Position numbers and translations under genes: made by a program. Under the pieces are notes generated by a model. It searched no databases and was not told where the DNA came from. It saw only the letters and a list, made by a program, of their open reading frames with translations. Positions 2,543 through 40,973 of a DNA stretch of 64,000 bases are shown piece by piece. Position 1 is the stretch's first letter. Each line of letters begins with the position of its first letter. Source of the DNA: Candidatus Pacearchaeota archaeon (GTDB taxonomy: Archaea > Nanobdellota > Nanobdellia > Pacearchaeales > GW2011-AR1); NCBI GenBank assembly GCA_038874355.1, contig JAVZCO010000001.1:322074-386073 (forward strand). Reading direction: 5' to 3'.

Positions 2543-4602
2543 TAATAAAAAGAATAATATTAGAAAACATCAGAAGTTACGAAAAGGCAGAAATAGAATT
2601 TCCCTTAGGCTCTGTTTTGTTAGAAGGAGATATAGGTTCGGGAAAAACAACAATATTGTTAGCAATAGAATTTGCTTTGTTTGGATTACAACCAGGAAAA
2701 AAAGGATCTTCTCTTTTAAGAAATGGAGAAAGAGAAGGAAAAGTTGTTTTAGAAATAGAAGTTGATGGAAAAAATGTAATTATTGAAAGAAATTTGAAAG
2801 CATCTTCTAAGGGTGTAAATCAATCTAATTGTTTTATAATTGTAGATAATGAAAAAAAAGAGTTATCAACCACAGAATTAAAAAATCTAATAATTCAGAT
2901 TTTGAATTATCCAAAAGAATTTATAAAAAAAACAAATATACTTTACAGATTTACTGTTTATACACCTCAAGAAGAAATGAAACAAATTATATTAGAACCA
3001 GCAGAATTGAGATTAGATACTTTAAGACACATTTTTGGTATAGATAAATATAAAAGAGTAAAAGAAAATTTAGCCATTATTGGAATAAAATTAAGAGAAA
3101 TAATAAAAAATTACGAAGGACAAATAATGACATTAGAAGAAGAAAAAACAAAAAAAGAAGAAAAGAAAAAAGATATAGAAAAAATAAGAATTAATTTAAA
3201 AGAAGAAGAATTAATTTTAAAAGAAAAAAAAGAAAAAAGAAAAAATATAGAAAAAGAAATAGAAGAATTAACAAAAAAGATTAAAGAAAAAGAAAATTAC
3301 GAAAAAGAAGCAGAAAAAATTAGAGTTATGCTAATAGGAAAAAAAGAAATTTTTTCTTCTAAGGAAAAAGAAAAAGAAGAAATAGAAAAAGAAATAACAA
3401 ATTTAAAATTAACAAAATTTTCAGAAGAAGAACTTTTTAATAAAGAAAAAGAAAAACAATCTTTAGAAAAAGAAAAAGAAGAAAAAAGTAAAGGATATTT
3501 AGAAATTACAGGAAGAATAAATTCTATAAAATTAAAAATAGAAGAAATAAAAAAACAAAAAGATCAGATTTCTATATTAAAAGTTTGCCCAACATGTTTG
3601 CAAGAAATAAAAGAGGAATATAAAGTTTATGTTATCAATAATTTTGAATATAATATTATACAATTAAAAAAAGAATTAGAAGAAAAAGAAACAGAAAAGA
3701 AGATTTTAGGAAAAAGGATAGAAGAAATAAATAAAAAAATATTTGATATAGAAAAAGAAATAACAAATTTAAAATTAATAAAAATAAAATTAAAAGATTT
3801 AGAAGAAAAAGAAAGAAAATTAGAAAAAATAAAAAAAGAAATTTCGATAATAAAAAAAGATATAGAAATGTTAGACTCCCAATTAAAGAATTTGTTAGAA
3901 ATAGTTTCTTCTTTTAAAAAATACGAAAATCTTTTCGATAAAAAAAATTCTGAATTAAAAGATGCATTAAAAGAAGAGAAAAATTCTGAAATAGTTATTG
4001 CAGAATTAGAAAAAGAGATAGATTTACTTTTAAAAATAGTGAAAGAAATAGAAAAAAGCATAGAAGAAAAAATGAAATTAAAAGAGAAATTAAATTATGT
4101 AAAAGAAATTGAAAATTGGTTATCTACAAATTTTTTAGATTTAATTAATTTTATAGAAAGAAATATAATGTTAAAATTAATAGAAGAATTCTCTAAGTTA
4201 TTTAATGAGTGGTTTAATTTATTAGTTCCTGAAAATTTTTCTGTTAAGCTAGATGAAACTTTCACACCAATTATAGAACAAAATGGATATACTTTAGATT
4301 ATGATTATATGTCTGGCGGGGAAAGAACGGCAGTTGCTTTATCTTACAGATTAGCTTTAAATCAAATTCTTAATTCTTTGCATAGTAAAATAAAAACAAA
4401 AGAAATATTAATTTTAGACGAACCTACTGACGGTTTTTCAGAGCAACAATTAGAAAAGATGAGAGATGTTTTTGAACAACTAAAAGCAAAGCAAATTATT
4501 ATTGTTAGCCATGAAAATAAAATGGAGGATTTCGTAGAAAATATAATAAGCTTTAAAAAAGAAAATGGTATTTCTAAAATAGAAAAGAAAGATATTCAAT
4601 AA
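2539..4602 (+). CDS. rad50: DNA double-strand break repair ATPase Rad50 (compact version)
   Basis: Walker A GDIGSGKTT, long K/E-rich coiled coil, CPTC zinc hook, signature SGGER, Walker B ILILDEPT. Operon partner of mre11. Confidence 0.85.
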   Translation: MIIKRIILENIRSYEKAEIEFPLGSVLLEGDIGSGKTTILLAIEFALFGLQPGKKGSSLLRNGEREGKVVLEIEVDGKNVIIERNLKASSKGVNQSNCFIIVDNEKKELSTTELKNLIIQILNYPKEFIKKTNILYRFTVYTPQEEMKQIILEPAELRLDTLRHIFGIDKYKRVKENLAIIGIKLREIIKNYEGQIMTLEEEKTKKEEKKKDIEKIRINLKEEELILKEKKEKRKNIEKEIEELTKKIKEKENYEKEAEKIRVMLIGKKEIFSSKEKEKEEIEKEITNLKLTKFSEEELFNKEKEKQSLEKEKEEKSKGYLEITGRINSIKLKIEEIKKQKDQISILKVCPTCLQEIKEEYKVYVINNFEYNIIQLKKELEEKETEKKILGKRIEEINKKIFDIEKEITNLKLIKIKLKDLEEKERKLEKIKKEISIIKKDIEMLDSQLKNLLEIVSSFKKYENLFDKKNSELKDALKEEKNSEIVIAELEKEIDLLLKIVKEIEKSIEEKMKLKEKLNYVKEIENWLSTNFLDLINFIERNIMLKLIEEFSKLFNEWFNLLVPENFSVKLDETFTPIIEQNGYTLDYDYMSGGERTAVALSYRLALNQILNSLHSKIKTKEILILDEPTDGFSEQQLEKMRDVFEQLKAKQIIIVSHENKMEDFVENIISFKKENGISKIEKKDIQ

Positions 4603-4644: not shown

Positions 4645-5664
4645 ATGAAAGAAAAAAAAGAATATTTTTTAGGGATAGAATCTACTGCTCATACTTTTGG
4701 AATTGGAATAGTAAAAGAAGGAAAAATTATTGTAAATCTTAAAAGTTCTTATAAAACAACAGAAGGTGGATTAATCCCTATTGAAAGTGCAAAACATCAT
4801 GAAGAAATAAAAGAAAAACTTTATGAAGAAGCACTAAAAAAAGCTAATATAAATGAAAAAGAAATAAAAGCAATAGCATTTTCACAAGCTCCAGGTTTGC
4901 CCCCGTGTTTAATAGTAGGGATGAAATTTTCTAAAGATTTAGCTAAAAAATTAAATTTACCTTTAATACCTGTAAATCATTGTATTGCTCATTTAGAAAT
5001 AGGAAGTATAACTAATGCAAAAGATCCTGTTTTACTTTACTGTTCTGGAGCAAATACACAAATAATATCTTATGCAGCAGGAAAATACAGAGTTTTCGGA
5101 GAAACCTTAGATTTAGGTATAGGAAATTTTATTGATAGTTTTGCAAGATATATAGGAATAGGTTTTCCTGGTGGTCCAATAGTAGAAGATTTATCTAAAA
5201 AATACAGAGAAAAAGAAAAAAAAGAATATATTCTTTTGCCATATACTATAAAAGGTATGGATTTTGCTTTTTCTGGTATTCTAACAAATTTAAAACAAAA
5301 AATACAAACAAAAAAATATACTTCAGAACAATTATCATACAGTTTAGAAGAGACAGCATTTTCAATTTTAATAGAAGCCACCGAAAGAGCAATGGCCCAT
5401 TTAAATAAATCAGAACTTTTACTTGGCGGTGGTGTTGTTTGTAATAAAAGATTGCAAGAAATGGCTAAAATAATGTGTGAAGAAAGAAACGCAAAATTAT
5501 TTATTCCGTCTAACGAATTACTTGTAGATAATGGAGCAATGATAGCTTATTTAGGAGAGATAATGTATAATGCAGGGGTTAAATATGAAGGAAAAGAAAT
5601 AGATAAAATTGATATATTACCCAGACAAAGAGCTGATGAAGTTAATGTAGTTTGGAAAAAATAA
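4645..5664 (+). CDS. kae1: tRNA N6-threonylcarbamoyladenosine synthase Kae1
   Basis: GIESTAHTFGIGIV N-terminus and an HxxH-like CIAHLE block of the Kae1/TsaD/Qri7 family. 339 aa with no Bud32 fusion. Confidence 0.85.
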   Translation: MKEKKEYFLGIESTAHTFGIGIVKEGKIIVNLKSSYKTTEGGLIPIESAKHHEEIKEKLYEEALKKANINEKEIKAIAFSQAPGLPPCLIVGMKFSKDLAKKLNLPLIPVNHCIAHLEIGSITNAKDPVLLYCSGANTQIISYAAGKYRVFGETLDLGIGNFIDSFARYIGIGFPGGPIVEDLSKKYREKEKKEYILLPYTIKGMDFAFSGILTNLKQKIQTKKYTSEQLSYSLEETAFSILIEATERAMAHLNKSELLLGGGVVCNKRLQEMAKIMCEERNAKLFIPSNELLVDNGAMIAYLGEIMYNAGVKYEGKEIDKIDILPRQRADEVNVVWKK

Positions 5665-25942: not shown

Positions 25943-27625
25943 ATGAAAAGTAAATTTTTAATTTTAGCAACAATTTTGTTTAGCTTAACAATATTAAATT
26001 TTGTTAGCGCAAGTTTAATTTTTTCTCAAAATTCAGTTTATCTATCAAAATCCATTAACTCAACAGAAATAATTTTAACAAATAATGAAAATGAAACTGT
26101 AACCATAACATATCCAACAACAATAACAATTTATTCTGGAACAATCTTAAGAGACGAAATTTCTTACTCTATAAGTTTAGAAAACGCAACTTTAGAAGAA
26201 GGAAATAGTACAAAAATTATTATATCTTTACAAAAAAGTCCTTCTAATTGGAAAAACTTCAAAATAGGAAAATTGTATTCAACTATTATTACCTTTACTG
26301 GGAATTATTCTAATTGGACAGATAATAAAAATTTAACTCTTTACTTTGTTAATGATTTTTGTAAATATGGTGAAGTAGGAAAAATAGAAATATATAAAGT
26401 TACAGACGAATTAAAAGATAATGAAGATGAATGGATATGGCATCCTCTTGATAATATAAAAATAAAAGTTAATGATGTTTATAATGGATTCGATAAGTCT
26501 AAAAAAATAAAAGTGGAATATGCTTTATATGATAGTAATGGAAAAAATAAACTTGATTTAGAAAATATAGAAAGATACAAAATATTGAAAATAGACAGTG
26601 GAGATGAAAAAGACGTAACTTTTGAATTTAGAATTCCAGCAGATATTGAAGAAGGAACATATAAATTATTTGTTAAAGCATACATAGATGAAGATGAAGA
26701 TGAAGGTTGTACTTCTATAATAAACAGCGAAACAATATATTATCAAGAAGTAGAAATTGAAAAAGAATATGATAGAGCAGTTATTATTGATGAATATGAA
26801 TTAAATCCTATACAAGCAACTTGCGGAGAAAATATAATCTTAAATTTGCCAATATATAATATAGGAAATAAAGATGAAGAAAAAGTCCTTGTTAATTTAT
26901 ATAATAAAGAGTTAGGAATAAATTTATATGAGGTAATAGAAGAATTAGAAAAAGGAGAATCTACCTATGTAACATTTAACTTTGAAATACCACAGAATGC
27001 AACAGAAAAAATATACAATCTTGAAATTATTACATATTATGATTATGATGAAGATAATTCAAAATGTAATAAAGATACAGATATATATTGTTATGATGAA
27101 GATTCAAAAACAGATTTAGAAAAAAAATTTTATCAATCTATAACTGTAAAAGGAAATTGTATAACAACAACAAAAGAAAAAAATGTAAAGATAATGGCAT
27201 CTTTGATGAATGAAGAAGAAATAAAAGCCGGAGATGAGGTAGAAATAAAAATAACTTTTACAAATACAGGAAATAAGACAACTTCTTATATAATCATGGC
27301 TAGTGATTATGAAGATTGGGCAAATTTAATAAGCCTCGAACCGCAATCTTTTAATTTAGTCCCTAGCGAAAGCAGAGATGCTGTATTGAAGTTTAAGATA
27401 AACAAAGATACTTATGGGGAACAAACTTTCAAGATTAAAGTTTTATTTGATGGAATAACAGAAGAAAAAAGCATATCTTTAGAAATTGAACCACAACAAT
27501 CAAAATTTACAATAAGATTACCCAAGATATTTGAAGAAAATAAAATTTTACTTTGGATAATAATTGTTAATATTATCTTAATAATATTAATAATAATTGT
27601 TGCTATAAAAGTGTCTAGAAGTTAA
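25943..27625 (+). CDS. secreted surface protein (S-layer/adhesin-like) with C-terminal TM anchor
   Basis: N-terminal signal peptide, many N-x-S/T sequons, beta-rich repeats, C-terminal hydrophobic helix followed by basic tail KVSRS. Confidence 0.55.
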   Translation: MKSKFLILATILFSLTILNFVSASLIFSQNSVYLSKSINSTEIILTNNENETVTITYPTTITIYSGTILRDEISYSISLENATLEEGNSTKIIISLQKSPSNWKNFKIGKLYSTIITFTGNYSNWTDNKNLTLYFVNDFCKYGEVGKIEIYKVTDELKDNEDEWIWHPLDNIKIKVNDVYNGFDKSKKIKVEYALYDSNGKNKLDLENIERYKILKIDSGDEKDVTFEFRIPADIEEGTYKLFVKAYIDEDEDEGCTSIINSETIYYQEVEIEKEYDRAVIIDEYELNPIQATCGENIILNLPIYNIGNKDEEKVLVNLYNKELGINLYEVIEELEKGESTYVTFNFEIPQNATEKIYNLEIITYYDYDEDNSKCNKDTDIYCYDEDSKTDLEKKFYQSITVKGNCITTTKEKNVKIMASLMNEEEIKAGDEVEIKITFTNTGNKTTSYIIMASDYEDWANLISLEPQSFNLVPSESRDAVLKFKINKDTYGEQTFKIKVLFDGITEEKSISLEIEPQQSKFTIRLPKIFEENKILLWIIIVNIILIILIIIVAIKVSRS

Positions 27626-29303: not shown

Positions 29304-29720
29304 TCACATATCAACTACTACTTGAATTATGTATTTATTTTTAATCTTTTTTATAATCATATTATTATAAGTTATTGCCTTTATTTCTGAAAAAATTTCA
29401 TAATTTTTTGTTTCATCTCCAATTAATTCTGTTTTTAATTTTAATTTCTTTTTATCAATTTTTATTTTTTTAATCTTAGATGGAATAAAGTTTTTTGAAT
29501 AAATCAGAATTAAAATTTCTTCTAAAAAATTGTATAAAAGTTGTTCTAAGTTTTTACCATTTACACTAAAGATTATTTTTATTCTTTCCTTTATTTTATT
29601 TTTTGTTATTAAACTTAACATAGCATAAACAGAATTCTTAAAAGCTTCTTCTAGAGTTATTCCATAAGCTTGAAACATTCCATCTGCTGTATGTTCTAAA
29701 ATTCTAAATTTTTTCTTCAT
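29304..29720 (-). CDS. archease
   Basis: N-terminal ILEHTADGMFQAYGITLEEAF matches the archease FEHTADIG...LEELF block. Confidence 0.75.
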   Translation of the reverse strand: MKKKFRILEHTADGMFQAYGITLEEAFKNSVYAMLSLITKNKIKERIKIIFSVNGKNLEQLLYNFLEEILILIYSKNFIPSKIKKIKIDKKKLKLKTELIGDETKNYEIFSEIKAITYNNMIIKKIKNKYIIQVVVDM

Positions 29721-29721
29721 T

Positions 29722-30123
29722 TTATTCTTTCCACATAAAAATTTTTATAACCTTTGGTTCATATTGGTAAATTGTAGAAGAAATAACAGTTTCTGAAGAA
29801 AAGACTTCTTTTTTATAAAAATCCATTGAACATATTTCATCTAATGAACATATTCTTATTGTATAATTAAAAGATTTAGGTATTTTATTTTCTAAAAATA
29901 TAATTATTTTTTCTGTATTGTTTTCTAATACCTCTTTTCTTAATTCTTCATTATTAGATATTTCTAAAAGAAGGGCTTTTTGTAAAGAGTAAATTTCATC
30001 TGAAATGTCTGCTCTATTTACATTTTTCACATACAAAAAAAATAGAAGAGAAAATATTAGTAATACTGCTATAAAAGCTTCTATTATTCTTACCCATCCT
30101 TTTTTATTTTTACTTATTCTCAT
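29722..30123 (-). CDS. pilin-like protein (putative class-III signal peptide)
   Basis: N-terminal KNKKGWVRIIEAFIAVLLIF. Last gene of the pilus operon. Confidence 0.4.
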   Translation of the reverse strand: MRISKNKKGWVRIIEAFIAVLLIFSLLFFLYVKNVNRADISDEIYSLQKALLLEISNNEELRKEVLENNTEKIIIFLENKIPKSFNYTIRICSLDEICSMDFYKKEVFSSETVISSTIYQYEPKVIKIFMWKE

Positions 30124-30163: not shown

Positions 30164-30898
30164 TTACCATACTTTTATTTGCATAAAAATATATTCAAAA
30201 GTCCCATTAGGATAAAATATTTGTTCTGGAATAGTTCTTGAATATACTACTGCCTTTTCTGGTGTATTGCCTAAACTTATTATTTTATTAGTTCTCTCTA
30301 AATTATAAAAGTCAATAGCAAAATTTTTTGTTTGTGGTAATCCAATTCTATCTTTTAGTTTTGAATAATTAGTTTCGTATTCTTTTTTGAAAGTTTCATT
30401 TAAATATTTAAATGAAATAGAATAATAACTTCTTAACATACCTAAAGTATAATTTTTTTTATCAATTTTTCTATTACAATTGTTCCCATCTAGATTATTT
30501 TCTAAAAAATCTTCCGAAAAATAAATATAATAAAAATCTATCTGAGAAGAAAAATTAGAATATATAACATAATTATTTTCTTTTATTGTATGCATGGAAT
30601 CGTAAATTGTGTTATTTAAATCTTTTTTTGTTAAATTCTTATTTCTTAAATTATCATCATCTTTAATCTCAAAATTATAACATCCTTCATAACTTTCATT
30701 TAATTTAATAGAATATATAATTATCTCTTTTTTCAATTCTTTTTCTATACTTTGCTGTAATAAATTTAAATATGTTTGTTCATTTCCCATTTTTTTAAAT
30801 GGATTAAAAAATATTAAAAGAAAAATTAAAAATCCTATGAAAATTACAAATGATAATAATATTTCAAGATGGCTTTGTGATTTTTTATTTTTTATCAT
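30164..30898 (-). CDS. pilus-associated / pilin-like protein
   Basis: N-terminal basic stretch followed by a hydrophobic helix (KKSQSHLEILLSFVIFIGFLIF), then an N- and Y-rich extracellular domain. Confidence 0.35.
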   Translation of the reverse strand: MIKNKKSQSHLEILLSFVIFIGFLIFLLIFFNPFKKMGNEQTYLNLLQQSIEKELKKEIIIYSIKLNESYEGCYNFEIKDDDNLRNKNLTKKDLNNTIYDSMHTIKENNYVIYSNFSSQIDFYYIYFSEDFLENNLDGNNCNRKIDKKNYTLGMLRSYYSISFKYLNETFKKEYETNYSKLKDRIGLPQTKNFAIDFYNLERTNKIISLGNTPEKAVVYSRTIPEQIFYPNGTFEYIFMQIKVW

Positions 30899-30909
30899 TT
30901 TAATTAAAT

Positions 30910-31791
30910 TTAGCCTATGAATGAATTTGCTCCTAAATAAATTAATAATGATGTTGTGATAAGGATAAAAGAGTGTTTTAATCCTGCTTTTATACTTCCT
31001 TCTGATAATTTTCCTATAATTATTCCAGCAAAAAAGCTTTGTACTAACAGTAATACAAACATCATTGTTGATACAGAAATCTCTTTTTCTTCGTTCGGAT
31101 TATTTTCTTGATTGGTCACATTATAAGAAGAAATATCTATATTTGTTGAAAAAATACTCGATTCTCCAAGATTAGATAATTCGCTTGTTAATGGAATTAT
31201 TTTGAATTGCATTATTAGCATAATGATTAAAAAAACAAAGAATATTATATAACCTTCTATTGTTAAACCATAAATTATTGCTTTTCTTTCTTCTTTTAAT
31301 TTTTCTATATCCCTGACAGATTTAGAAACATTTTCTAAAATATCTTCTATTGATCCACCAGCTTTTTCAGCTTCTTTTATTAACATTATAGATCTCGTTA
31401 CAATATTGCTTTTAACATCTTTAGCAAAAGTATCAAATGCTTTTGAAACAGGAATTCCTATAGATATTTGATTTGCAAGTTTTTGTATATAAAATGTTAA
31501 AGGACCATAATCCTTATTTCTTAAATTAATTATTGCTTTACTTATAGGAGTTCCTGATTTTACACTTTCTACTAAATCTCTAGAAAATTCTAAAAACATC
31601 CTTCCTTTTTCTTGTTCTTTGCTAGTTTCTAATACTAAATCAACAAAAAAAGGTAAAGTAGCAATTACGAATCCTACACTTAATAGAAAATAATACAAAT
31701 TTTTATCTTGTTTAAATAAAAAAATAAAACCAAATACTATAATCAAAAAAAAAACTATCATTCCTATAATGTGTGGTTTTTTTATTTTCAT
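30910..31791 (-). CDS. type IV pilus/archaellum platform protein, TadC/FlaJ-like (second T2SSF domain)
   Basis: GspF/T2SSF-like domain (TFYIQKLANQISIGIPVSKAF...IKEAEKAGGSIEDIL) flanked by TM helices. Confidence 0.65.
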   Translation of the reverse strand: MKIKKPHIIGMIVFFLIIVFGFIFLFKQDKNLYYFLLSVGFVIATLPFFVDLVLETSKEQEKGRMFLEFSRDLVESVKSGTPISKAIINLRNKDYGPLTFYIQKLANQISIGIPVSKAFDTFAKDVKSNIVTRSIMLIKEAEKAGGSIEDILENVSKSVRDIEKLKEERKAIIYGLTIEGYIIFFVFLIIMLIMQFKIIPLTSELSNLGESSIFSTNIDISSYNVTNQENNPNEEKEISVSTMMFVLLLVQSFFAGIIIGKLSEGSIKAGLKHSFILITTSLLIYLGANSFIG

Positions 31792-31792
31792 T

Positions 31793-33091
31793 TTAATAAC
31801 TTGTTTGTTTTAAATTTAAAAATAATATGAAAATTATGTTAATTATAGAGATACACCCTATAATAATAGATAATAACAGAACAGAGGAAAATCCTATATT
31901 TATTATTTTTGTTGACATTAAAGCTATTAACAATCCAAATATCATAGGAGCAGCAATAACAAGACTTATATAAATATCCATAAAAGTTTCTGCTTCTTTT
32001 GTATATTTCTCTTTTTCTATTTTATATTCAAAAAATAAAGTTTCTGCCCTCTTTTCCAAAAATTCTGTTATGTTTCCGCCGGTAGTTATTATTGCCCCTA
32101 TCCCTAAAAATAATTCCGATAATTCTTTAGATGGTGTTATCTTTGCAACGTTTTTTAATGCTGTAACTAAATCATAACCATATAAATTTATTTGATTCAT
32201 AACTTTAATAAACTCTTTCTTTATATTAGGGTATTCTTTACCAAAAGCAATTATCTTAAATATATAAGAAGGTTCTACTTTTGAGCTTGATATAGCGGCC
32301 ATATTTAAAACAACAAAAGGAAGTTCTTCTTTTATTTTTGTTTCTATACTTTTACTTTCTGTAGCAGGATAAAAATAAAAAATGAAAAAAGTAAAAAAGG
32401 GTAATAAAAAAATTATCCAAATATATTTGATTAAATCTAATTTTAAGAAAAAATAACCAAAAATCAAAAAAAAAATACTAAGTATAAAAGATAAAAAAGA
32501 AGAGAAAAAAGCCATAGACAGATAAGAATTTGTCAAAAATGGAATTGATGCTTTTTTTAAATTTTTTTCTAAATCAATAAAATATCCTTTTTTTAAAAGA
32601 GAATTAGAAAGATTAAGGAACATTTTATTAGAAATTCTTTTATAAAAATTAGATTTTGCTATATTCATAGAATAATCTTCTTGATTTTTAATTTTTTTTT
32701 CTTTTAATCTTTCTATTGCTTCTTCACTAATCCTTAATTCTTCCAAAAATTTTTCCTTATCTTTTTTATTAATTATTATGTTAATTTGTTTTCCTTTACT
32801 ATTATAACTTATATTTGAAAGCTCTTGCGAGCTTTCTTTTTTTAAATTTTTTTTATCTTTTACCTCATTTTTAAAAGGTGGAAATTCTCTGAAAGGAGAT
32901 ATATTCTCTATTATTTTTGGTATAGACTCGTTAAGTATTTTTAATTGATTTAATAAAGAATTTATTTTTTTTTCTATAATTATTTTTTCTTCTTTGCTAT
33001 TCGATAAAAAAAATTTTTCGTTTAAAGATATTACCTCGCTAATTATTTCTTTTTCTCTTTCAATATTTGATAATAATCCCTCTAGTGTCAT
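31793..33091 (-). CDS. type IV pilus/archaellum platform protein, TadB/FlaJ-like (first T2SSF domain)
   Basis: T2SSF-like domain (LYGYDLVTALKNVAKIT...GGNITEFLEKRAETL) with TM helices. One nt separates its stop from the downstream platform gene. Confidence 0.6.
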   Translation of the reverse strand: MTLEGLLSNIEREKEIISEVISLNEKFFLSNSKEEKIIIEKKINSLLNQLKILNESIPKIIENISPFREFPPFKNEVKDKKNLKKESSQELSNISYNSKGKQINIIINKKDKEKFLEELRISEEAIERLKEKKIKNQEDYSMNIAKSNFYKRISNKMFLNLSNSLLKKGYFIDLEKNLKKASIPFLTNSYLSMAFFSSFLSFILSIFFLIFGYFFLKLDLIKYIWIIFLLPFFTFFIFYFYPATESKSIETKIKEELPFVVLNMAAISSSKVEPSYIFKIIAFGKEYPNIKKEFIKVMNQINLYGYDLVTALKNVAKITPSKELSELFLGIGAIITTGGNITEFLEKRAETLFFEYKIEKEKYTKEAETFMDIYISLVIAAPMIFGLLIALMSTKIINIGFSSVLLLSIIIGCISIINIIFILFLNLKQTSY

Positions 33092-33258
33092 GTTAAAAGT
33101 TTAGATATTTGTGAATTTATTTTAATGATCTCTTTTTTAGTTTTTTCATAATTTTCAATATCTTTCTTTGTATAATATTCTTCTAATTTTCTACTTATTT
33201 GTTCTAATGAGTTAATTAAAATATACAACAAAGAGATTCTTTCTTTACTTAACATTTT
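33088..33258 (-). CDS. small coiled-coil ORF (56 aa) translationally coupled to the platform gene
   Basis: My own translation: MLSKERISLLYILINSLEQISRKLEEYYTKKDIENYEKTKKEIIKINSQISKLLT. Its TGA stop overlaps the ATG of the 31793..33091 gene. Confidence 0.2.
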   Translation of the reverse strand, partial: KMLSKERISLLYILINSLEQISRKLEEYYTKKDIENYEKTKKEIIKINSQISKLLT

Positions 33259-33311: not shown

Positions 33312-34832
33312 TTAAGAAAGGAGATTATATTTTAACATTACTGCTTGTGGGTTTTTATAATATTCATTTATTTCTTTCTGTACTGTTTCAAAATCATATA
33401 TTTTTCTTTTAAATAATTCATATAACAGTCTTGTTCTTATCTCAAACTCTTTTAATATTTGTTGTTTAGTAAAACCATGCCTTTGACATATTTTATCAAA
33501 AACTTTTGATTCTTTTTTAAAATAAAATTTGTCATCTGCAGGATTCCATACAAAGGGGGTATTTGTAGTGGCTATTCCGTCAGGATCTACATTTATTATT
33601 TCAGAGATACTTCTTAATCTTCTTGTTTCTTGATTTTTTACAATAACATGACTCATTATTGTAACAACATCTAAAGTATTTACAAGTGTTGGAGATAGTT
33701 CTATTGGTGGTGTTTCTAATCTTTTTATTACCGTATCAACAGAATCTGCATGTATTGTTGATAAAGACGCGTGCCCAGAAGCCATACCTTGAAATAAAAC
33801 AAAAGCTTCTTTACCTCTTACTTCTCCCACTATTACATAATCTGGATTTTGTCTAAAAGAATTTTTTAATAAAGAAAAAAGATCAACTTCCCCAATATTC
33901 CCAGTTCCAATCGCAGTTCTAGCTACAGCAGGAACCCAGTTCTCTTTTGATAAATTTATTTCTCTAGTATCTTCTATAGAAACTATTCTTGCTTCTGGTG
34001 GTATAAAAAAAGAAATTGCATTAAGTAAAGTAGTCTTTCCAGAACCAGTTCCACCAGCAATTAATATGTTGCATTTATATTGTATTAAAATCCAAAAATA
34101 AGCAAGCATTTCTGGAGAAAGAGTATTCATAGACAAAAGGTGAATAGGAGTCCAAGGAGTTTTTGTAAATTTTCTTATTGTAAATGTAGGACCTCTACTT
34201 GTTACATCAGTAGTATATGTAGCATTAACTCTACTTCCGTCAGGTAAGGATCCATCTAATAATGGAGAAGCATAAGAAATATATCTACCACATCTTTGTG
34301 CAAGTTTTTCTACAAAACTTGCCAAATTTTCAATATCTCTAAAAATAATGTTTGTTCTTAAATTTCTATATAATCTATGGACAATATAAATAGGTGTATT
34401 AACTCCATTGCATTCTATATCTTCAATAAAATAATCATTTAATAAAGGTTCTATTTCATTAAATCCAATAAAATTTCTGTAAAGATAATAAAAAATTTTA
34501 TTGTAACTTTCTTCTGAAACTTTTAAAACAAGTTCAGAAATTAATAATTTAGCTGTTTTATCAATATATTCTATAAGTGATTCTATTGTTCTTTCTTTTA
34601 GTAAGTTTATATTTATAATCTCTTTCATTCCTTCTTCTAATTTAGAAAGAATTTGTTTTTCATAATCATTTAATATAGGTTCTTCTACTTCGTATAATAC
34701 TTCTTGTTCAGAATGATTCCAATAAATATGAACAAAAACGTATGGAGGTATTAATGCATATCTTAAATCTATTTTTGACCTATCGCTAAATCTTGGAAGC
34801 TGCGGAATAGTTGGTTTTAAGTTTATTTCCAT
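33312..34832 (-). CDS. FlaI/PilB-like type IV pilus/archaellum assembly ATPase (GspE/VirB11 superfamily)
   Basis: Walker A ILIAGGTGSGKTTLLNA, Asp box SIEDTREI, Walker B YVIVGEVRG, His box region. Confidence 0.85.
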   Translation of the reverse strand: MEINLKPTIPQLPRFSDRSKIDLRYALIPPYVFVHIYWNHSEQEVLYEVEEPILNDYEKQILSKLEEGMKEIININLLKERTIESLIEYIDKTAKLLISELVLKVSEESYNKIFYYLYRNFIGFNEIEPLLNDYFIEDIECNGVNTPIYIVHRLYRNLRTNIIFRDIENLASFVEKLAQRCGRYISYASPLLDGSLPDGSRVNATYTTDVTSRGPTFTIRKFTKTPWTPIHLLSMNTLSPEMLAYFWILIQYKCNILIAGGTGSGKTTLLNAISFFIPPEARIVSIEDTREINLSKENWVPAVARTAIGTGNIGEVDLFSLLKNSFRQNPDYVIVGEVRGKEAFVLFQGMASGHASLSTIHADSVDTVIKRLETPPIELSPTLVNTLDVVTIMSHVIVKNQETRRLRSISEIINVDPDGIATTNTPFVWNPADDKFYFKKESKVFDKICQRHGFTKQQILKEFEIRTRLLYELFKRKIYDFETVQKEINEYYKNPQAVMLKYNLLS

Positions 34833-34833
34833 T

Positions 34834-35370
34834 TTAAGATAAAATAAAATCTATTTGATATTTACTTGTTGTCTCTTCATACTTTACGTTTCTTATATAA
34901 ATTTTATATGGAATCGGTGTTTGTGTTAGTTCTTTATTTTCTTCTTTTCCGTTATATGTTATATTTACATTTTTTTCTTTATATTTCAAATACAATTTTA
35001 TTTTATAATCATTTGCCTTTTGTTCTGTTAAAATGTTTATGCTACCTCTTTTAACCTCTTTTCCAGGCTGGGAATAAGAATATTTACTATCAATTTCAAA
35101 TTCTATTGTATCATTTTCTGAGTTTATTCTCATTTTTCCTTTTTTTATCATTATCTCACTTATTTCTCTAGTATTTCCCGGGCCATACACAAGTAATTCT
35201 TGAATTTTTGATTCTATTATATTTAAACTTTCTATACTGTTTTCTATAATAAATTTATCTTGTCTTTCTTGTATAGTTGGTTTTACAACAGCAAGAACAA
35301 TTCCAATTATAGAAAGCATTATCACAGTATAAATTACAGTTTCTATCCATACCTGTCCTTTTATTTTCAT
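34834..35370 (-). CDS. pilin-like protein with class-III signal peptide
   Basis: MKIKGQVWIETVIYTVIMLSIIGIVLAV: basic residues, Gly, then a hydrophobic helix. Confidence 0.5.
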   Translation of the reverse strand: MKIKGQVWIETVIYTVIMLSIIGIVLAVVKPTIQERQDKFIIENSIESLNIIESKIQELLVYGPGNTREISEIMIKKGKMRINSENDTIEFEIDSKYSYSQPGKEVKRGSINILTEQKANDYKIKLYLKYKEKNVNITYNGKEENKELTQTPIPYKIYIRNVKYEETTSKYQIDFILS

Positions 35371-35377
35371 TTTACAT

Positions 35378-35866
35378 TTAAGTGCACTTTTTAATGTTAT
35401 ATGATTGTGATGTTATATCACAAGTTTTTCCATTAATCATAACAGTTATAGTAGAATAACTAACATTTCCTAAAGAAAATATATAAGTTAATGCTTCCCC
35501 TCTTTCTGGTAAAACTATTGTTGAAGATCCATCATACATTTTAACACCATTTAAATTAGTTCCATTTTTTAATTCATATCCTTTAGAACTTGCACCTGAA
35601 GATAAAGATATGTATATTCCATCTATTTCTTTTTGGTCAGATCCTCTTTCAATTTGTATTAATGTAGATGTACTATTAGAACAAGTATATTCTGAATCTA
35701 AAATATTTATATAATCCATATACTCATAACAAGAAGATTTTCCTATATCTTTATTAATAATTTCTTTTACAAACTTTCCTAAGGTTAATGTTGCTATTAT
35801 AGTTATTACTACTAATAACAAAGTAGCAATTACAGGAGATATTGCTCTTTTATTTTTTTTTATCAT
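35378..35866 (-). CDS. archaeal type IV pilin (class-III signal peptide)
   Basis: MIKKNKRAISPVIATLLLVVITIIA: the KR-A-ISPVIATLLLV pilin/archaellin N-terminal motif. Confidence 0.7.
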   Translation of the reverse strand: MIKKNKRAISPVIATLLLVVITIIATLTLGKFVKEIINKDIGKSSCYEYMDYINILDSEYTCSNSTSTLIQIERGSDQKEIDGIYISLSSGASSKGYELKNGTNLNGVKMYDGSSTIVLPERGEALTYIFSLGNVSYSTITVMINGKTCDITSQSYNIKKCT

Positions 35867-35903
35867 TTTCCCTCTTTTTTATATTAAATTATTATTTTTA
35901 ATT
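35804..35903. repeat. about 100-nt direct repeat, copy A (pilin 5' coding plus upstream region)
   Basis: About 97% identical to 36296..36395 at a constant offset of 492 nt. Confidence 0.7.
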
Positions 35904-35908
35904 AATTT

Positions 35909-36358
35909 TTATATGGTTTCTGCTAAAAAAGTATTCTCTTTACATGTATATTGTGTCTTTTTTCCTTTTTCATTTTCACCTAAAATAACAGGAATTACTT
36001 CTATTGAATCTTTATTTTTTAATGAATCATCTTTTATACTTTCTCCAGCACCTATTAGAATGCTTTTATTTATTTCATAATTCTTTATTTTTCCTTTTTC
36101 TTTTAATCTTAATTGTAAAGAATAAATTGGATAATTTCCTATATTAGAAAAACTAATTTCTCCACTATCTTTATTATAATAAACTTCTAATCTTATTTCT
36201 CCACATACTTGTTGTGCTGGTTTTTCTTTTTTTTGTATAGATTCTTTTATAAAACTTTTTGCCCATATAAAAACTATTAATACAAGAATTATTACTATTA
36301 CTACTAATAACAAAGTAGCAATTACAGGAGATATTGCTCTTTTATCTTTTTTTATCAT
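35909..36358 (-). CDS. archaeal type IV pilin (class-III signal peptide), paralog of 35378..35866
   Basis: MIKKDKRAISPVIATLLLVVIVIIL. The N-terminus is identical to its neighbour and the C-terminal domain is divergent. Confidence 0.7.
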   Translation of the reverse strand: MIKKDKRAISPVIATLLLVVIVIILVLIVFIWAKSFIKESIQKKEKPAQQVCGEIRLEVYYNKDSGEISFSNIGNYPIYSLQLRLKEKGKIKNYEINKSILIGAGESIKDDSLKNKDSIEVIPVILGENEKGKKTQYTCKENTFLAETI

Positions 36359-36395
36359 TTTCCCTCTTTTTTATATTAAATTATTATTTTTAATT
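36296..36395. repeat. about 100-nt direct repeat, copy B
   Basis: See copy A. Covers the first 21 codons and 37 nt upstream of the pilin gene. Confidence 0.7.
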
Positions 36396-36413
36396 TAAAT
36401 ACTTTTCTAAATC

Positions 36414-36920
36414 TCATATACAATTTTTTATTTCTTGTTCTATTTTTTGATTCGAACATAGTAATTTATCATTCTTTATAGTATGAGTTGGAATTACATT
36501 GATTTTTGTTATTAAATTCAAATTAGAATAATCAAAAATAGCCAAAACTTCTTCATTATCAGACGCATTTAAATTATTTTGAAAATAATATTCAAAACTA
36601 CTAATATTTCTTATTTTTCCTTGAGGAAAACTATTTTTTAAATTTATAGACATAATTGGTAATTGTGTAGAATTTGATGCTTTTATTATTGCCCCACTTA
36701 TGTCATATAGCCCCATATTTTTTAAGGTTAAATTTAATATTTTATTAGAAGAATCACAAGAATAATCCTTTATTATTAATGATAATGTTTCTGGACATTC
36801 TTCTGTTTTTGTAGGAATTTGTCTTTTCATCCATGTATAAACCAAGACACTCAAAGATAAAACTATTGTTATAATTAAAACATAAGCTACTATTTCACTT
36901 ATTGCTTTTTTATTTTTCAT
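36414..36920 (-). CDS. pilin-like protein (class-III signal peptide)
   Basis: MKNKKAISEIVAYVLIITIVLSL. Confidence 0.55.
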   Translation of the reverse strand: MKNKKAISEIVAYVLIITIVLSLSVLVYTWMKRQIPTKTEECPETLSLIIKDYSCDSSNKILNLTLKNMGLYDISGAIIKASNSTQLPIMSINLKNSFPQGKIRNISSFEYYFQNNLNASDNEEVLAIFDYSNLNLITKINVIPTHTIKNDKLLCSNQKIEQEIKNCI

Positions 36921-36932
36921 TTTACTATTTTT

Positions 36933-37490
36933 TTATTTTGAAGATACTGTTTGATTTCCTGTTGTGATTACAAAATAAAAGTTTTGTCCTTCTTTTATGT
37001 TAAAAGATTTATAAAAATTTATTTCTGGAACATTTATTAAAATTTTACCTTCTTCATCTAAGGTTTGGGTTATATCATAAATTATTATACTTCTTATTTG
37101 TGTGTTTTGGGTAATACGATCCCCTTCTCTTCCTATTTCCATACTTATTTCTCCACCAGTAGTAGAATTTATTATAATCGCCTTTAAATTATTTTTATCT
37201 CCATATATAAAAAGCCATGTTGGGTAAATTCCTTCTGTTGTTGTTACGTATTTTTGCGAATATTCTGTATAATTCGTGATCCAAATTTCTATTAAAGAAT
37301 TCAAATCTTTTTTATTAACTATCCCATAGTCAATAACCTTTGCGGTTTCTAATTCTATTACATCTTTTATACTATAAATTGGATATTTTTCCTCTTTTGT
37401 CCTTATATAATTAAAACTTAAAGTTATTATTAAAATTACTCCTATTATTATTATTGCAGCCATCAAGTAAAATTGATTTTTTTTATTCAT
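36933..37490 (-). CDS. pilin-like / pilus-associated protein
   Basis: MNKKNQFYLMAAIIIIGVILIITL N-terminal anchor. First gene of the operon. Confidence 0.4.
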   Translation of the reverse strand: MNKKNQFYLMAAIIIIGVILIITLSFNYIRTKEEKYPIYSIKDVIELETAKVIDYGIVNKKDLNSLIEIWITNYTEYSQKYVTTTEGIYPTWLFIYGDKNNLKAIIINSTTGGEISMEIGREGDRITQNTQIRSIIIYDITQTLDEEGKILINVPEINFYKSFNIKEGQNFYFVITTGNQTVSSK

Positions 37491-39701: not shown

Positions 39702-40973
39702 TTATTTCAATTCGTCACTAGCCCATCTTCTTAAAGCTTCTCTTAATTCATAATGATTTTTAGAATAATTTGCTAAACTTATTTTCTTCATACACGCGTC
39801 TACAGCTTGTCTCATTGCTTTTGCTCCTGCAATACTACCATAAGGATGGCCATGAATTCCTCCACCAGCTTGTATTAAAATATTATCCCCCAAATGTTTG
39901 ATTAAAAACGGAACGTGTCCAGGATGCAAACCGCCAGAACAAACTGCTAACATTGGCTTTATTTTATACCAATTTTGTTGTAATCTTGTTTTTGTCTCTT
40001 TAACATAATTTTCTTCTATTTCTTCTTCTATCTCATGAACTTCTTTAATACTGGTTTCCATTTTTCCTATACCAGTTCCTATATGTAAAGAATCTAATCC
40101 TATTAATCTAGCAATATCAGCTAAAACCATCATACTTACACCATGTTTTTCATTTCTTGTTAAAGCAGCGTGCATTGCTCTATGTCCGTGAATAACTAAT
40201 TTTAAATTTCTATTTTCTTTTGATAAAGTTTGCAAGGCAGAAAAACCAACAGTTAACATATCAACCATGATGAATTTAGCATTTTGTTTCTTTACTAATT
40301 CTGCTCTTCTTATCATCTCTTCTGTTTCTGCTGTTACATTAATCAAATAAGCTTTTTTTTCTCCTGTTTCTTTTTCTGCTTTATCTTTCATTTCTAATGT
40401 TTTTAATAATCTTTTTTCAAATTTGTTAAAATCCTGACTTGAAAGATTTTCATCATCTTTAACAAAATCACATCCTCCTAACCATGATTCATAAGCAGAT
40501 TTTGCATGTTCTTCTGTTTTTAATCCTAATTTTGGCTTAACAATTGTTCCAACTAATGGTCTTTTTTTTATTCTTAATATTTTTCTTATACCCTTTAATC
40601 CATATAAAGGACCATAAAAACTTTTAATTATAGATTTAGGAAATTGAATATCTTCTAATCTCAAAGCTTTTACATCTTTCATACCAAAAATATTTCCTGC
40701 AACACTGCTTAATATATTAGCCATATTTCCTTTTTCAAATAATTCAGAAGGATATGCTATCTTAACATATTCTCCTTTTATAGAAAACACTTTTGCTCTC
40801 AAATCTTTAACATAGTTAAATTTTGGTATTTCTGTCCAAGTTCCAACAGAAGATTCTGCTGCAACTCTTTCTGCAGCTTCTTTAATTGTTAAATTATTGG
40901 CCGGTTCTATTCTAAATAAACAAACAATATCGTCCTTTGGTGTGTATTTTAGATTTAAATATTCATCATACAT
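39702..40973 (-). CDS. rbcL: ribulose-1,5-bisphosphate carboxylase large subunit, form III (archaeal type)
   Basis: Carbamylated-lysine region KPKLGL, GGCDFVKDDENL (compare GGLDFTKDDEN), HGHRAMH, C-terminal GGGIHGHP. 423 aa with no small subunit. Confidence 0.85.
   Translation of the reverse strand: MYDEYLNLKYTPKDDIVCLFRIEPANNLTIKEAAERVAAESSVGTWTEIPKFNYVKDLRAKVFSIKGEYVKIAYPSELFEKGNMANILSSVAGNIFGMKDVKALRLEDIQFPKSIIKSFYGPLYGLKGIRKILRIKKRPLVGTIVKPKLGLKTEEHAKSAYESWLGGCDFVKDDENLSSQDFNKFEKRLLKTLEMKDKAEKETGEKKAYLINVTAETEEMIRRAELVKKQNAKFIMVDMLTVGFSALQTLSKENRNLKLVIHGHRAMHAALTRNEKHGVSMMVLADIARLIGLDSLHIGTGIGKMETSIKEVHEIEEEIEENYVKETKTRLQQNWYKIKPMLAVCSGGLHPGHVPFLIKHLGDNILIQAGGGIHGHPYGSIAGAKAMRQAVDACMKKISLANYSKNHYELREALRRWASDELK

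Follow-up and report, generated by a model that had tools for sequence, protein, structure and literature searches.

Why should two neighbouring pilin genes possess almost the same 5' end, including non-coding DNA ahead of the start codon, when the remainder of one gene has diverged so far from that of the other? The question is raised by pilin genes A and B in a stretch of 64,000 nucleotides from a Candidatus Pacearchaeota archaeon, the whole of which is referred to here as the window. The sequence-only reading of this DNA saw in the arrangement the architecture of pilin variation by recombination at a conserved 5' module, through either cassette switching or gene conversion. Of several possible explanations we favour, with a probability of roughly 80%, a recent non-reciprocal transfer of the 5' end of B to A, by interlocus gene conversion or an equivalent copy-and-replace process between ancient tandem paralogs, of a kind that has recurred within the order.

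Direct comparison of the two copies of the shared segment, which are direct rather than inverted repeats and both lie on the minus strand, gave 99 equal bases out of 100 at a constant offset of 492 nt (a repeat search of the window reported the same pair as 108 nt at 96%). Each copy consists of 37 nt of upstream DNA and 63 nt (21 codons, MIKK[N/D]KRAISPVIATLLLVVI) of a pilin gene, and the earlier description of the repeat as the leader and first 21 codons of two tandem pilin genes is therefore correct. The identity had been put at about 97%, a figure that is too low; the constant offset stands, as does the single T/C change, which is found at 35854 (T) and 36346 (C) and distinguishes AAT (Asn) from GAT (Asp) at codon 5 of the gene strand. 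When the two loci were aligned, a check proposed in the same reading, the similarity proved to be real: at the 492-nt offset the 418 nt flanking the tract on one side are 36% identical and the 57 nt on the other side 42%, which is chance level for so AT-rich a sequence, and the identity falls from 99% to 36% at 35803/35804. The GC content of the window is 23.5%. With up to 3 mismatches permitted, two occurrences of a 41-nt core of the module, and no more, were found in the 64 kb, and none in 100 shuffles.

Table 1. Features of the pilin locus, with coordinates in the window.
Feature	Coordinates	Strand	Details
P1, pilin-like	36933..37490	-	syntenic in related loci
P2, pilin-like	36414..36920	-	syntenic in related loci; TIGR02537 20.3 bits
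TATA-like box upstream of B, TATTTAAA	36394..36401	-	at -43..-36 from the ATG, its TTTWWAW motif starting at -41; essentially beyond the repeat
Module copy, donor: 37 nt of pilin B leader and B codons 1-21	36296..36395	-	99/100 to 35804..35903; upstream continuous with B of L001
GAGGG, Shine-Dalgarno-like, inside the repeat	36362..36366	-	3 nt upstream of the B start codon; read from sequence
Pilin B	35909..36358	-	149 aa; TIGR02537 32.5 bits (cut-off 20); Pfam Pilin_N 30.6 bits (cut-off 25.2)
GAGGG, copied, upstream of the A start codon	35870..35874	-	sequence same as B copy
Module copy, recipient (conversion tract): 37 nt upstream of pilin A and A codons 1-21	35804..35903	-	B-type Pro at +3 and leader peptide
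Pilin A, second pilin	35378..35866	-	162 aa; distinct C-terminal domain; TIGR02537 30.9 bits (cut-off 20)
P5, pilin-like	34834..35370	-	N-terminus KGQVWIETVIYT; same position conserved in 62 loci
ATPase, T2SSE/FlaI-like	33312..34832	-	Pfam T2SSE 2.3e-36; NCBIfam FlaI-like 1.9e-117, under the equivalog cut-off
55-aa ORF	33088..33255	-	among assembly genes
T2SSF/PilC-like genes, two	31793..33091 and 30910..31791	-	Pfam T2SSF 1.2e-11 and 2.3e-17
Two ORFs, N-termini pilin-like by eye	30164..30898 and 29722..30123	-	translations only; no Pfam match

By their scores above the curated cut-off of TIGR02537 (Table 1), A and B are both classified as members of the archaellin/type IV pilin N-terminal family; against Pfam Pilin_N (PF07790), A reaches 22.6 bits, just under the cut-off. 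The B gene is located upstream of A, and B is probably the major pilin and the product of the first gene of its transcription unit. The sequence KRA/ISPV, where the stroke marks the predicted cleavage, fits the [KR][GA]/hydrophobic rule for prepilin peptidases of the PibD/FlaK type. Residues 1-13 of the predicted mature proteins are identical (ISPVIATLLLVVI), after which the helices differ (TIIATLTLGKF vs VIILVLIVFIW). Divergence of the gene remainders had also been noted previously, and it is borne out by C-terminal parts that are devoid of detectable DNA similarity and show marginal profile similarity (hhalign probability 37%). An AlphaFold model of B built with 17 homologs (pLDDT 88.4) has an N-terminal helix at residues 11-36 and seven strands in a beta-sandwich; a Foldseek search with it returned weak matches, including pilus subunits of Pyrobaculum and Sulfolobus (probability 0.90-0.92, E about 0.03-0.04), and no match in the PDB at E <= 0.001. 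The model of A has a layout like that of B at low confidence (pLDDT 64) and was too uncertain for a fold search. As predicted, the fold is the lollipop typified by a long N-terminal helix and a beta-rich globular domain.

The two genes form part of a co-directional run in the window, consisting of P1-P2-B-A-P5-ATPase, a 55-aa ORF, two T2SSF/PilC-like genes and two further ORFs. As judged from domain matches, A and B are encoded on the same strand as, and near to, an ATPase of the PilB/FlaI type and membrane proteins of the PilC/FlaJ type. Using the ATPase, 80 syntenic loci were found among GTDB species representatives, nearly all of them labelled as Pacearchaeota or other DPANN, with a few generic or apparently mislabelled records. 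The order P1-P2-B-A-P5-ATPase is syntenic in most of these as well as in the closest relative described below; blastp with the C-terminal domains separates the A type from the B type consistently across loci, and B orthologs are present in 51 loci. On the evidence of these comparisons A and B are ancient, stable paralog types, and dozens of Pacearchaeota genomes have an ortholog of each in the corresponding place of the operon. A recent whole-gene duplication followed by divergence of the C-terminal parts can be ruled out, as orthologs of both genes are spread across the order and the two C-terminal profiles show hardly any match.

The polarity of the shared 5' end can be read from the nearest relative found, a JGI metagenome contig (L001) with an ATPase that is 86% identical. 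L001 carries the same operon; its B counterpart (B') has 150 aa, its A counterpart (A') has 159 aa, and the two genes are 1 nt apart. Pilin A of the window is 55% identical to P0002, its ortholog at the same operon position in L001. No DNA repeat of at least 18 nt is shared by the gene starts of B' and A', and the tract in the window is thus the derived state. Downstream of codon 21, a four-way alignment gave 44/59 identities for B and B', 34/58 for A and A', and 30/60 for A and B. Within the 42-nt coding core of the module A and B agree at 42 of 42 positions, the module and B' at 34, the module and A' at 29. The sequence upstream of B in the window is 40/47 identical to that upstream of B', in an alignment that extends past the edge of the repeat. 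At the protein level A resembles B in its leader peptide of 8 residues and in the proline at position +3 of the mature protein; proline at +3 is invariant among the B homologs examined, and in L001, L085 and L088, the three closest relatives, A has alanine at +3 and a leader peptide of 5-6 residues. The B-type proline, the codons matching B of L001 and the upstream continuity with B together imply that the 5' end of B has overwritten that of A. Inside the tract the paralogs are closer to each other, outside it each is closer to its own ortholog, the boundaries are sharp and a relative without the tract exists: as far as sequence comparison can tell, this is the pattern of gene conversion, and the earlier suggestion of such an origin for the repeat is supported by the orthologs. 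The event was not a simple two-sided homologous conversion, as the 5' junction of the tract falls in the 3' end of B, where donor and recipient have no homology.

In the process that we propose, a piece of about 100 nt from the start of pilin B would have been copied over the corresponding end of pilin A, its downstream neighbour. Besides the post-TATA spacer and the GAGGG leader, this piece would carry the start codon and the sequence for the class III signal peptide and for the first 13 residues of the mature hydrophobic helix; a single substitution, the Asn/Asp difference in the leader peptide that is predicted to be cleaved off, would have arisen since. Similar events have been repeated across related lineages, with B-type sequence as the shared form and with C-terminal domains that stay distinct; like the sharp limits, the polarity and the recent date of the tract, this recurrence is shown by the sequences. 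As to why the tract persists, we infer from type IV pili in general that the N-terminal segment may be functionally interchangeable between subunits that are processed by the same prepilin peptidase and packed into the same filament core, so that its homogenisation would be tolerated or weakly favoured. In passing, A would have acquired the translation-initiation context of B, whereas in relatives its start is tightly coupled to the preceding stop.

This last point depends on what the 37 upstream nucleotides are. They had been taken for a promoter, a view that we do not share. The repeat starts at -37 from the ATG, only the last 2 nt of the TATA-like box of B are inside it, and no TATA-like box was found within 60 nt upstream of A in the window. 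As the conserved TATA box of B is outside the repeat, no promoter has been copied; the 37 nt consist of the post-TATA spacer, a probable transcription start site and a short leader with GAGGG. A heptamer TTTWWAW starting at -29..-27 from the ATG is frequent upstream of B (33/51), P1 (13/24) and the ATPase gene (29/81), and seldom occurs at this distance upstream of A (4/33), P2 (3/24) and P5 (5/62). From what is generally known of archaeal promoters, this spacing would fit leaderless transcripts from three transcription units. The start codon of B in the window lies about 13 nt further downstream than in L001, which places the box at -43..-36.

Shine-Dalgarno-like motifs are scarce in the window (7 of 56 ORFs, vs a background of 6.6%). 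In relatives, the A start is usually situated between -17 and +20 nt from the B stop and has no leader of its own. In the window, A now holds a separate initiation context identical to that of B, which is a fact of the sequence, and any effect on expression would follow from it only by inference. The statement that both genes share their start context and signal peptide is a direct outcome of this identity. Scans with sigma-70 promoter and terminator models, which are uninformative for an archaeon, yielded 20 promoter-like sites vs 24.6 expected, and 0 terminator-like sites.

The pattern is not confined to the window. Self-BLAST and anchored comparisons revealed 5' repeats between B and A in about one fifth of the related loci that contain B. 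The shortest are 36 nt at 94% (L012) and about 36 nt at 86% (L044 and L051); others are 42 nt at 100% (L032), 48 nt at 94% (L081), 50 nt at 100% (L007), 52 nt at 96% (L005), 60 nt at 77% (L088), 63 nt at 90% (L085) and 127 nt at 78% (L042). The tract in the window is the most recent and the longest, the 127 nt of L042 being matched at 78%. While the sequence shared by B and A varies between genomes, all fully homogenised pairs have the B-type Ser-Pro; L051, at about 86%, retains Ser-Gln in A. Each tract takes in the signal peptide and the first stretch of the helix, ending ahead of the type-specific part of the helix. Over a 48-nt core, A of the window has an identity of 0.94 to its own B, compared to at most 0.71 to a foreign A and 0.77 to a foreign B, and the mean identity of A to B between genomes is 0.54. 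The own-genome B is the nearest neighbour of just 4 of 27 A cores, and homogenisation is therefore episodic and not continuous. These sequence comparisons indicate recurrent concerted evolution that is episodic and confined to the N-terminal segment. The repeats that self-BLAST detected in L017 and L064 are of a different nature: they lie within larger proteins as internal domain repeats and are not B/A 5' modules.

Accepting that conversion has occurred, it may have been selectively neutral: an accident of repair between similar neighbouring sequences, still too young to have decayed and without consequence for the pilus. The event is very recent, with one difference in 100 nt, tract lengths and boundaries vary among lineages, and about four fifths of the genomes are without a recent tract, all of which speaks for neutrality. 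Against it, the shared sequence is of the B type in every fully homogenised pair, and the tracts always span the signal peptide and helix start and end before the type-specific helix. This directional bias suggests either selection or a mechanistic preference for B as donor, and we regard full neutrality as possible but rather unlikely. At the other extreme, the recurrent B-to-A transfer might be a selected mechanism that allows two very different surface domains to share a filament, combined in this genome with a switch in which B is deleted through the repeats by RadA. If this were true, the deletion would set A behind the B promoter and thereby amount to a one-way switch of the major pilin; we consider it doubtful that selection has shaped such a mechanism, although deletion of B through the direct repeats at low frequency is possible.

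Even less probable, in our view, is pilin variation as initially envisaged, where the 5' module is a recombination site for alternative 3' cassettes or, in a variant of this idea, a deletion of B between the repeats puts A behind the B promoter. One 5' module is indeed attached to two different C-terminal domains, and by general knowledge direct repeats of 100 nt, spaced by 492 nt, are long enough for homologous recombination. Because the 5' ends are identical, however, an exchange inside the module makes no new chimera; its only possible outcomes are loss or duplication of B. Neither gene is truncated, and orthologs of both types have been retained across the order; moreover, the repeat is absent from the closest relative and is hence not a conserved device. 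In Neisseria pilE/pilS, variable 3' parts are transferred from many silent, promoterless and 5'-truncated cassettes into one expressed gene. The present case is similar in that the transfer between pilin copies is non-reciprocal; it differs in that the conserved 5' part was moved between two complete genes with stable 3' parts, and in that no population-type variants were seen among the assemblies scanned and the module is present only twice in the 64 kb; each defining feature of the Neisseria type that was examined is lacking here. Nor does the locus resemble the Q/I pilin switch of Moraxella (Piv type), which has inverted repeats on either side of an invertible segment and a site-specific recombinase, and no recombinase or invertase domain was detected among the operon proteins tested. 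The cassette-switching proposal is therefore not supported: the 3' parts belong to stable, ancient paralogs, it was the conserved 5' end that was transferred, and silent copies lacking a 5' end are absent from the sequences searched.

Wider searches for the module agree with this. In a database of 5.8 billion proteins no protein besides A and B has the module: the sole match restricted to the N-terminus of B was A, and the homologs of A were itself and its L001 ortholog only. DNA scans of genome, metagenome and viral contigs yielded no further copies. An exact 38-nt module gave 0 matches in a collection of genome contigs in which the source genome is not a species representative, and a degenerate scan for the coding sequence of ISPVIATLLLVVI gave 0 matches in viral contigs and hits in only two metagenome contigs (L083 and L084). 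The latter, each with a single chance match to the peptide, belong to an archaeal pilin cluster that is unrelated and richer in GC, and were discarded. Look-ups of the exact products A, B and P0001 in a contig index returned nothing. The general lesson is that a 5' module shared by tandem surface-protein genes is by itself no proof of a variation system, and that comparison with orthologs decides the matter fast.

Two remaining alternatives can be dismissed briefly. Purifying selection at the nucleotide level might keep the copies identical for the sake of a cis-regulatory or structured RNA element common to both, which would account for identity at synonymous sites and in 37 non-coding nt, but this is highly improbable, given that orthologs vary freely (as in the comparisons of the module with B and A of L001), that the predicted fold is no better than that of shuffled sequences (z = -1.37; 19/200 shuffles as good) and that Rfam matches are far under their gathering scores (DapZ, 23 vs 56 bits; mir-365, 21.5 vs 62 bits). 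It is just as improbable that an assembler has placed one 5' end on both genes, for although the source is a metagenome-assembled genome, the 100-nt repeat is under typical read lengths, one base and the flanking sequences distinguish its copies, it lies on a contig of 575 kb, and a like pattern is seen in independent assemblies of other studies.

A recent B-to-A transfer, the reading we prefer, relates to several known systems. In Haloferax volcanii, according to a 2013 study as reviewed in PMC4371748, the type IV pilin paralogs PilA1-6 have a near-identical N-terminal hydrophobic segment and differing C-terminal domains, and the shared segment is required for pilus assembly. The six loci are not co-regulated with the biosynthesis genes, and it is the whole H-domain that is (almost) identical in this set. 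The archaeal paralogs described here likewise combine a near-identical N-terminal segment with differing C-terminal domains. In contrast to H. volcanii, they are encoded by two tandem genes within the pilus operon, their identity covers only the signal peptide and 13 mature residues and reaches into non-coding DNA, and it has been traced to a recent, lineage-specific DNA transfer; their function is predicted from sequence. Concerted evolution of tandem paralogs by interlocus gene conversion is a general phenomenon (PMC2720389, PMC3924837). Its hallmarks are found here as well, namely paralogs that exceed orthologs in similarity within a sharp tract, orthology that is restored outside it, and independent recurrence. 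What sets the present case apart from typical examples is that the tract is very short (100 nt), that it is one-sided and extends into non-homologous 5' sequence, and that the donor is consistently B.

Adjacent genes for paralogous subunits with alike N-terminal helices, which pack in one filament core, are also known from PilE1/PilE2 of Streptococcus sanguinis and from multiple archaellins. A and B share with these the adjacency of the genes and the similarity of the helices; their C-terminal domains are far more divergent, and A and B are not known to assemble together.

The census of Makarova et al. reports that major pilins are prone to tandem duplication and does not mention gene conversion (PMC4858521). 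Our literature search produced no account of archaeal pilins or archaellins whose paralogs undergo gene conversion, nor any detailed treatment of pilin operons of Pacearchaeota. As a process, this is ordinary textbook interlocus gene conversion, and it represents a new example for archaeal pilins and for Pacearchaeota. With its clear polarity and date, it shows that DNA transfer, and not selection at the protein level alone, can maintain one N-terminal assembly module across archaeal pilin paralogs, and it suggests that in Pacearchaeota the B and A pilins of the conserved operon are processed and assembled by a common pathway. Attachment of DPANN archaea to their hosts is believed to depend on surface appendages, and it is therefore useful to know which of their pilins are assembled together.

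The spacer between the adjacent pilin genes B and A, two ancient tandem paralogs, is very labile in the clade to which the window belongs, its length being 1, 42, 103 or 211 nt. It is enlarged to about 200 nt in two close relatives (L085, 4439..4649; L086, 1973..2171), where it includes GC-rich repeats of the CTCGCTCGC type together with repeated AAAAAAATAACTCGTGATAAAAAA units, in an otherwise AT-rich genome. The 103 nt spacer of a further relative (L088, 3894..3996) carries several palindromes.

In L085, genes B and A have mosaic 5' ends (4001..4060 vs 4650..4709), in which identical flanks (ATGAAAAATAAAAAAGGGGTATC and ACATTATTACTTGTAGTTATA) enclose a middle part that is specific for A and codes for SAVIA in place of SPVIA. 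This pattern points either to two short tracts or to selection that maintains Ala vs Pro at position +3 of the mature pilin.

The start codon of B in the window is located about 13 nt further downstream than that of the ortholog in the closest relative (window 36359..36375 vs L001 6255..6275), the ATG of the latter being aligned with the AAG of AAGAGGG in the window. This shift results in a short leader bearing GAGGG. Motifs resembling a Shine-Dalgarno sequence are uncommon in this genome (7 out of 56 ORFs).

Among the loci L003–L082, a TATA-like box of the type TTTWWAW is found at a fixed distance (-29 to -27) from the start codon of B in 33 of 51 cases, of the pilin-like gene P1 in 13 of 24, and of the ATPase gene in 29 of 81, while it is seldom found 5' of A or of the pilin-like genes P2 and P5. 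The distribution of the box over the B, P1 and ATPase genes suggests that the conserved pilus operon comprises three leaderless-type transcription units.

P5 has the best conserved N-terminus of the operon in all loci compared and, as in bacterial type IV pilins, has Glu at position +5. No match to P5 was obtained in profile searches against Pfam or NCBIfam.

Features of the pilus operon and its surroundings in the window
Feature	Position	Strand	Remarks
TATA-like box upstream of B	36394..36401	-	TTTWWAW-type motif
P5, pilin-like protein	34834..35370	-	N-terminus KGQVWIETVIYT
RuBisCO large-subunit homolog	39702..40973	-	Pfam 2.5e-92; flanks the operon
Archease	29304..29720	-	flanks the operon
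CARDB-domain surface protein	25943..27625	+	560 aa; flanks the operon

An archaeal locus unrelated to that of the window, which was picked up solely via a coincidental peptide match, contains a tandem array of four pilin genes whose N-termini are similar (L083, 6423..8175; L084, 3555..5373), followed by a gene for a multi-pass membrane protein that, judged from its translation, could be a prepilin peptidase.
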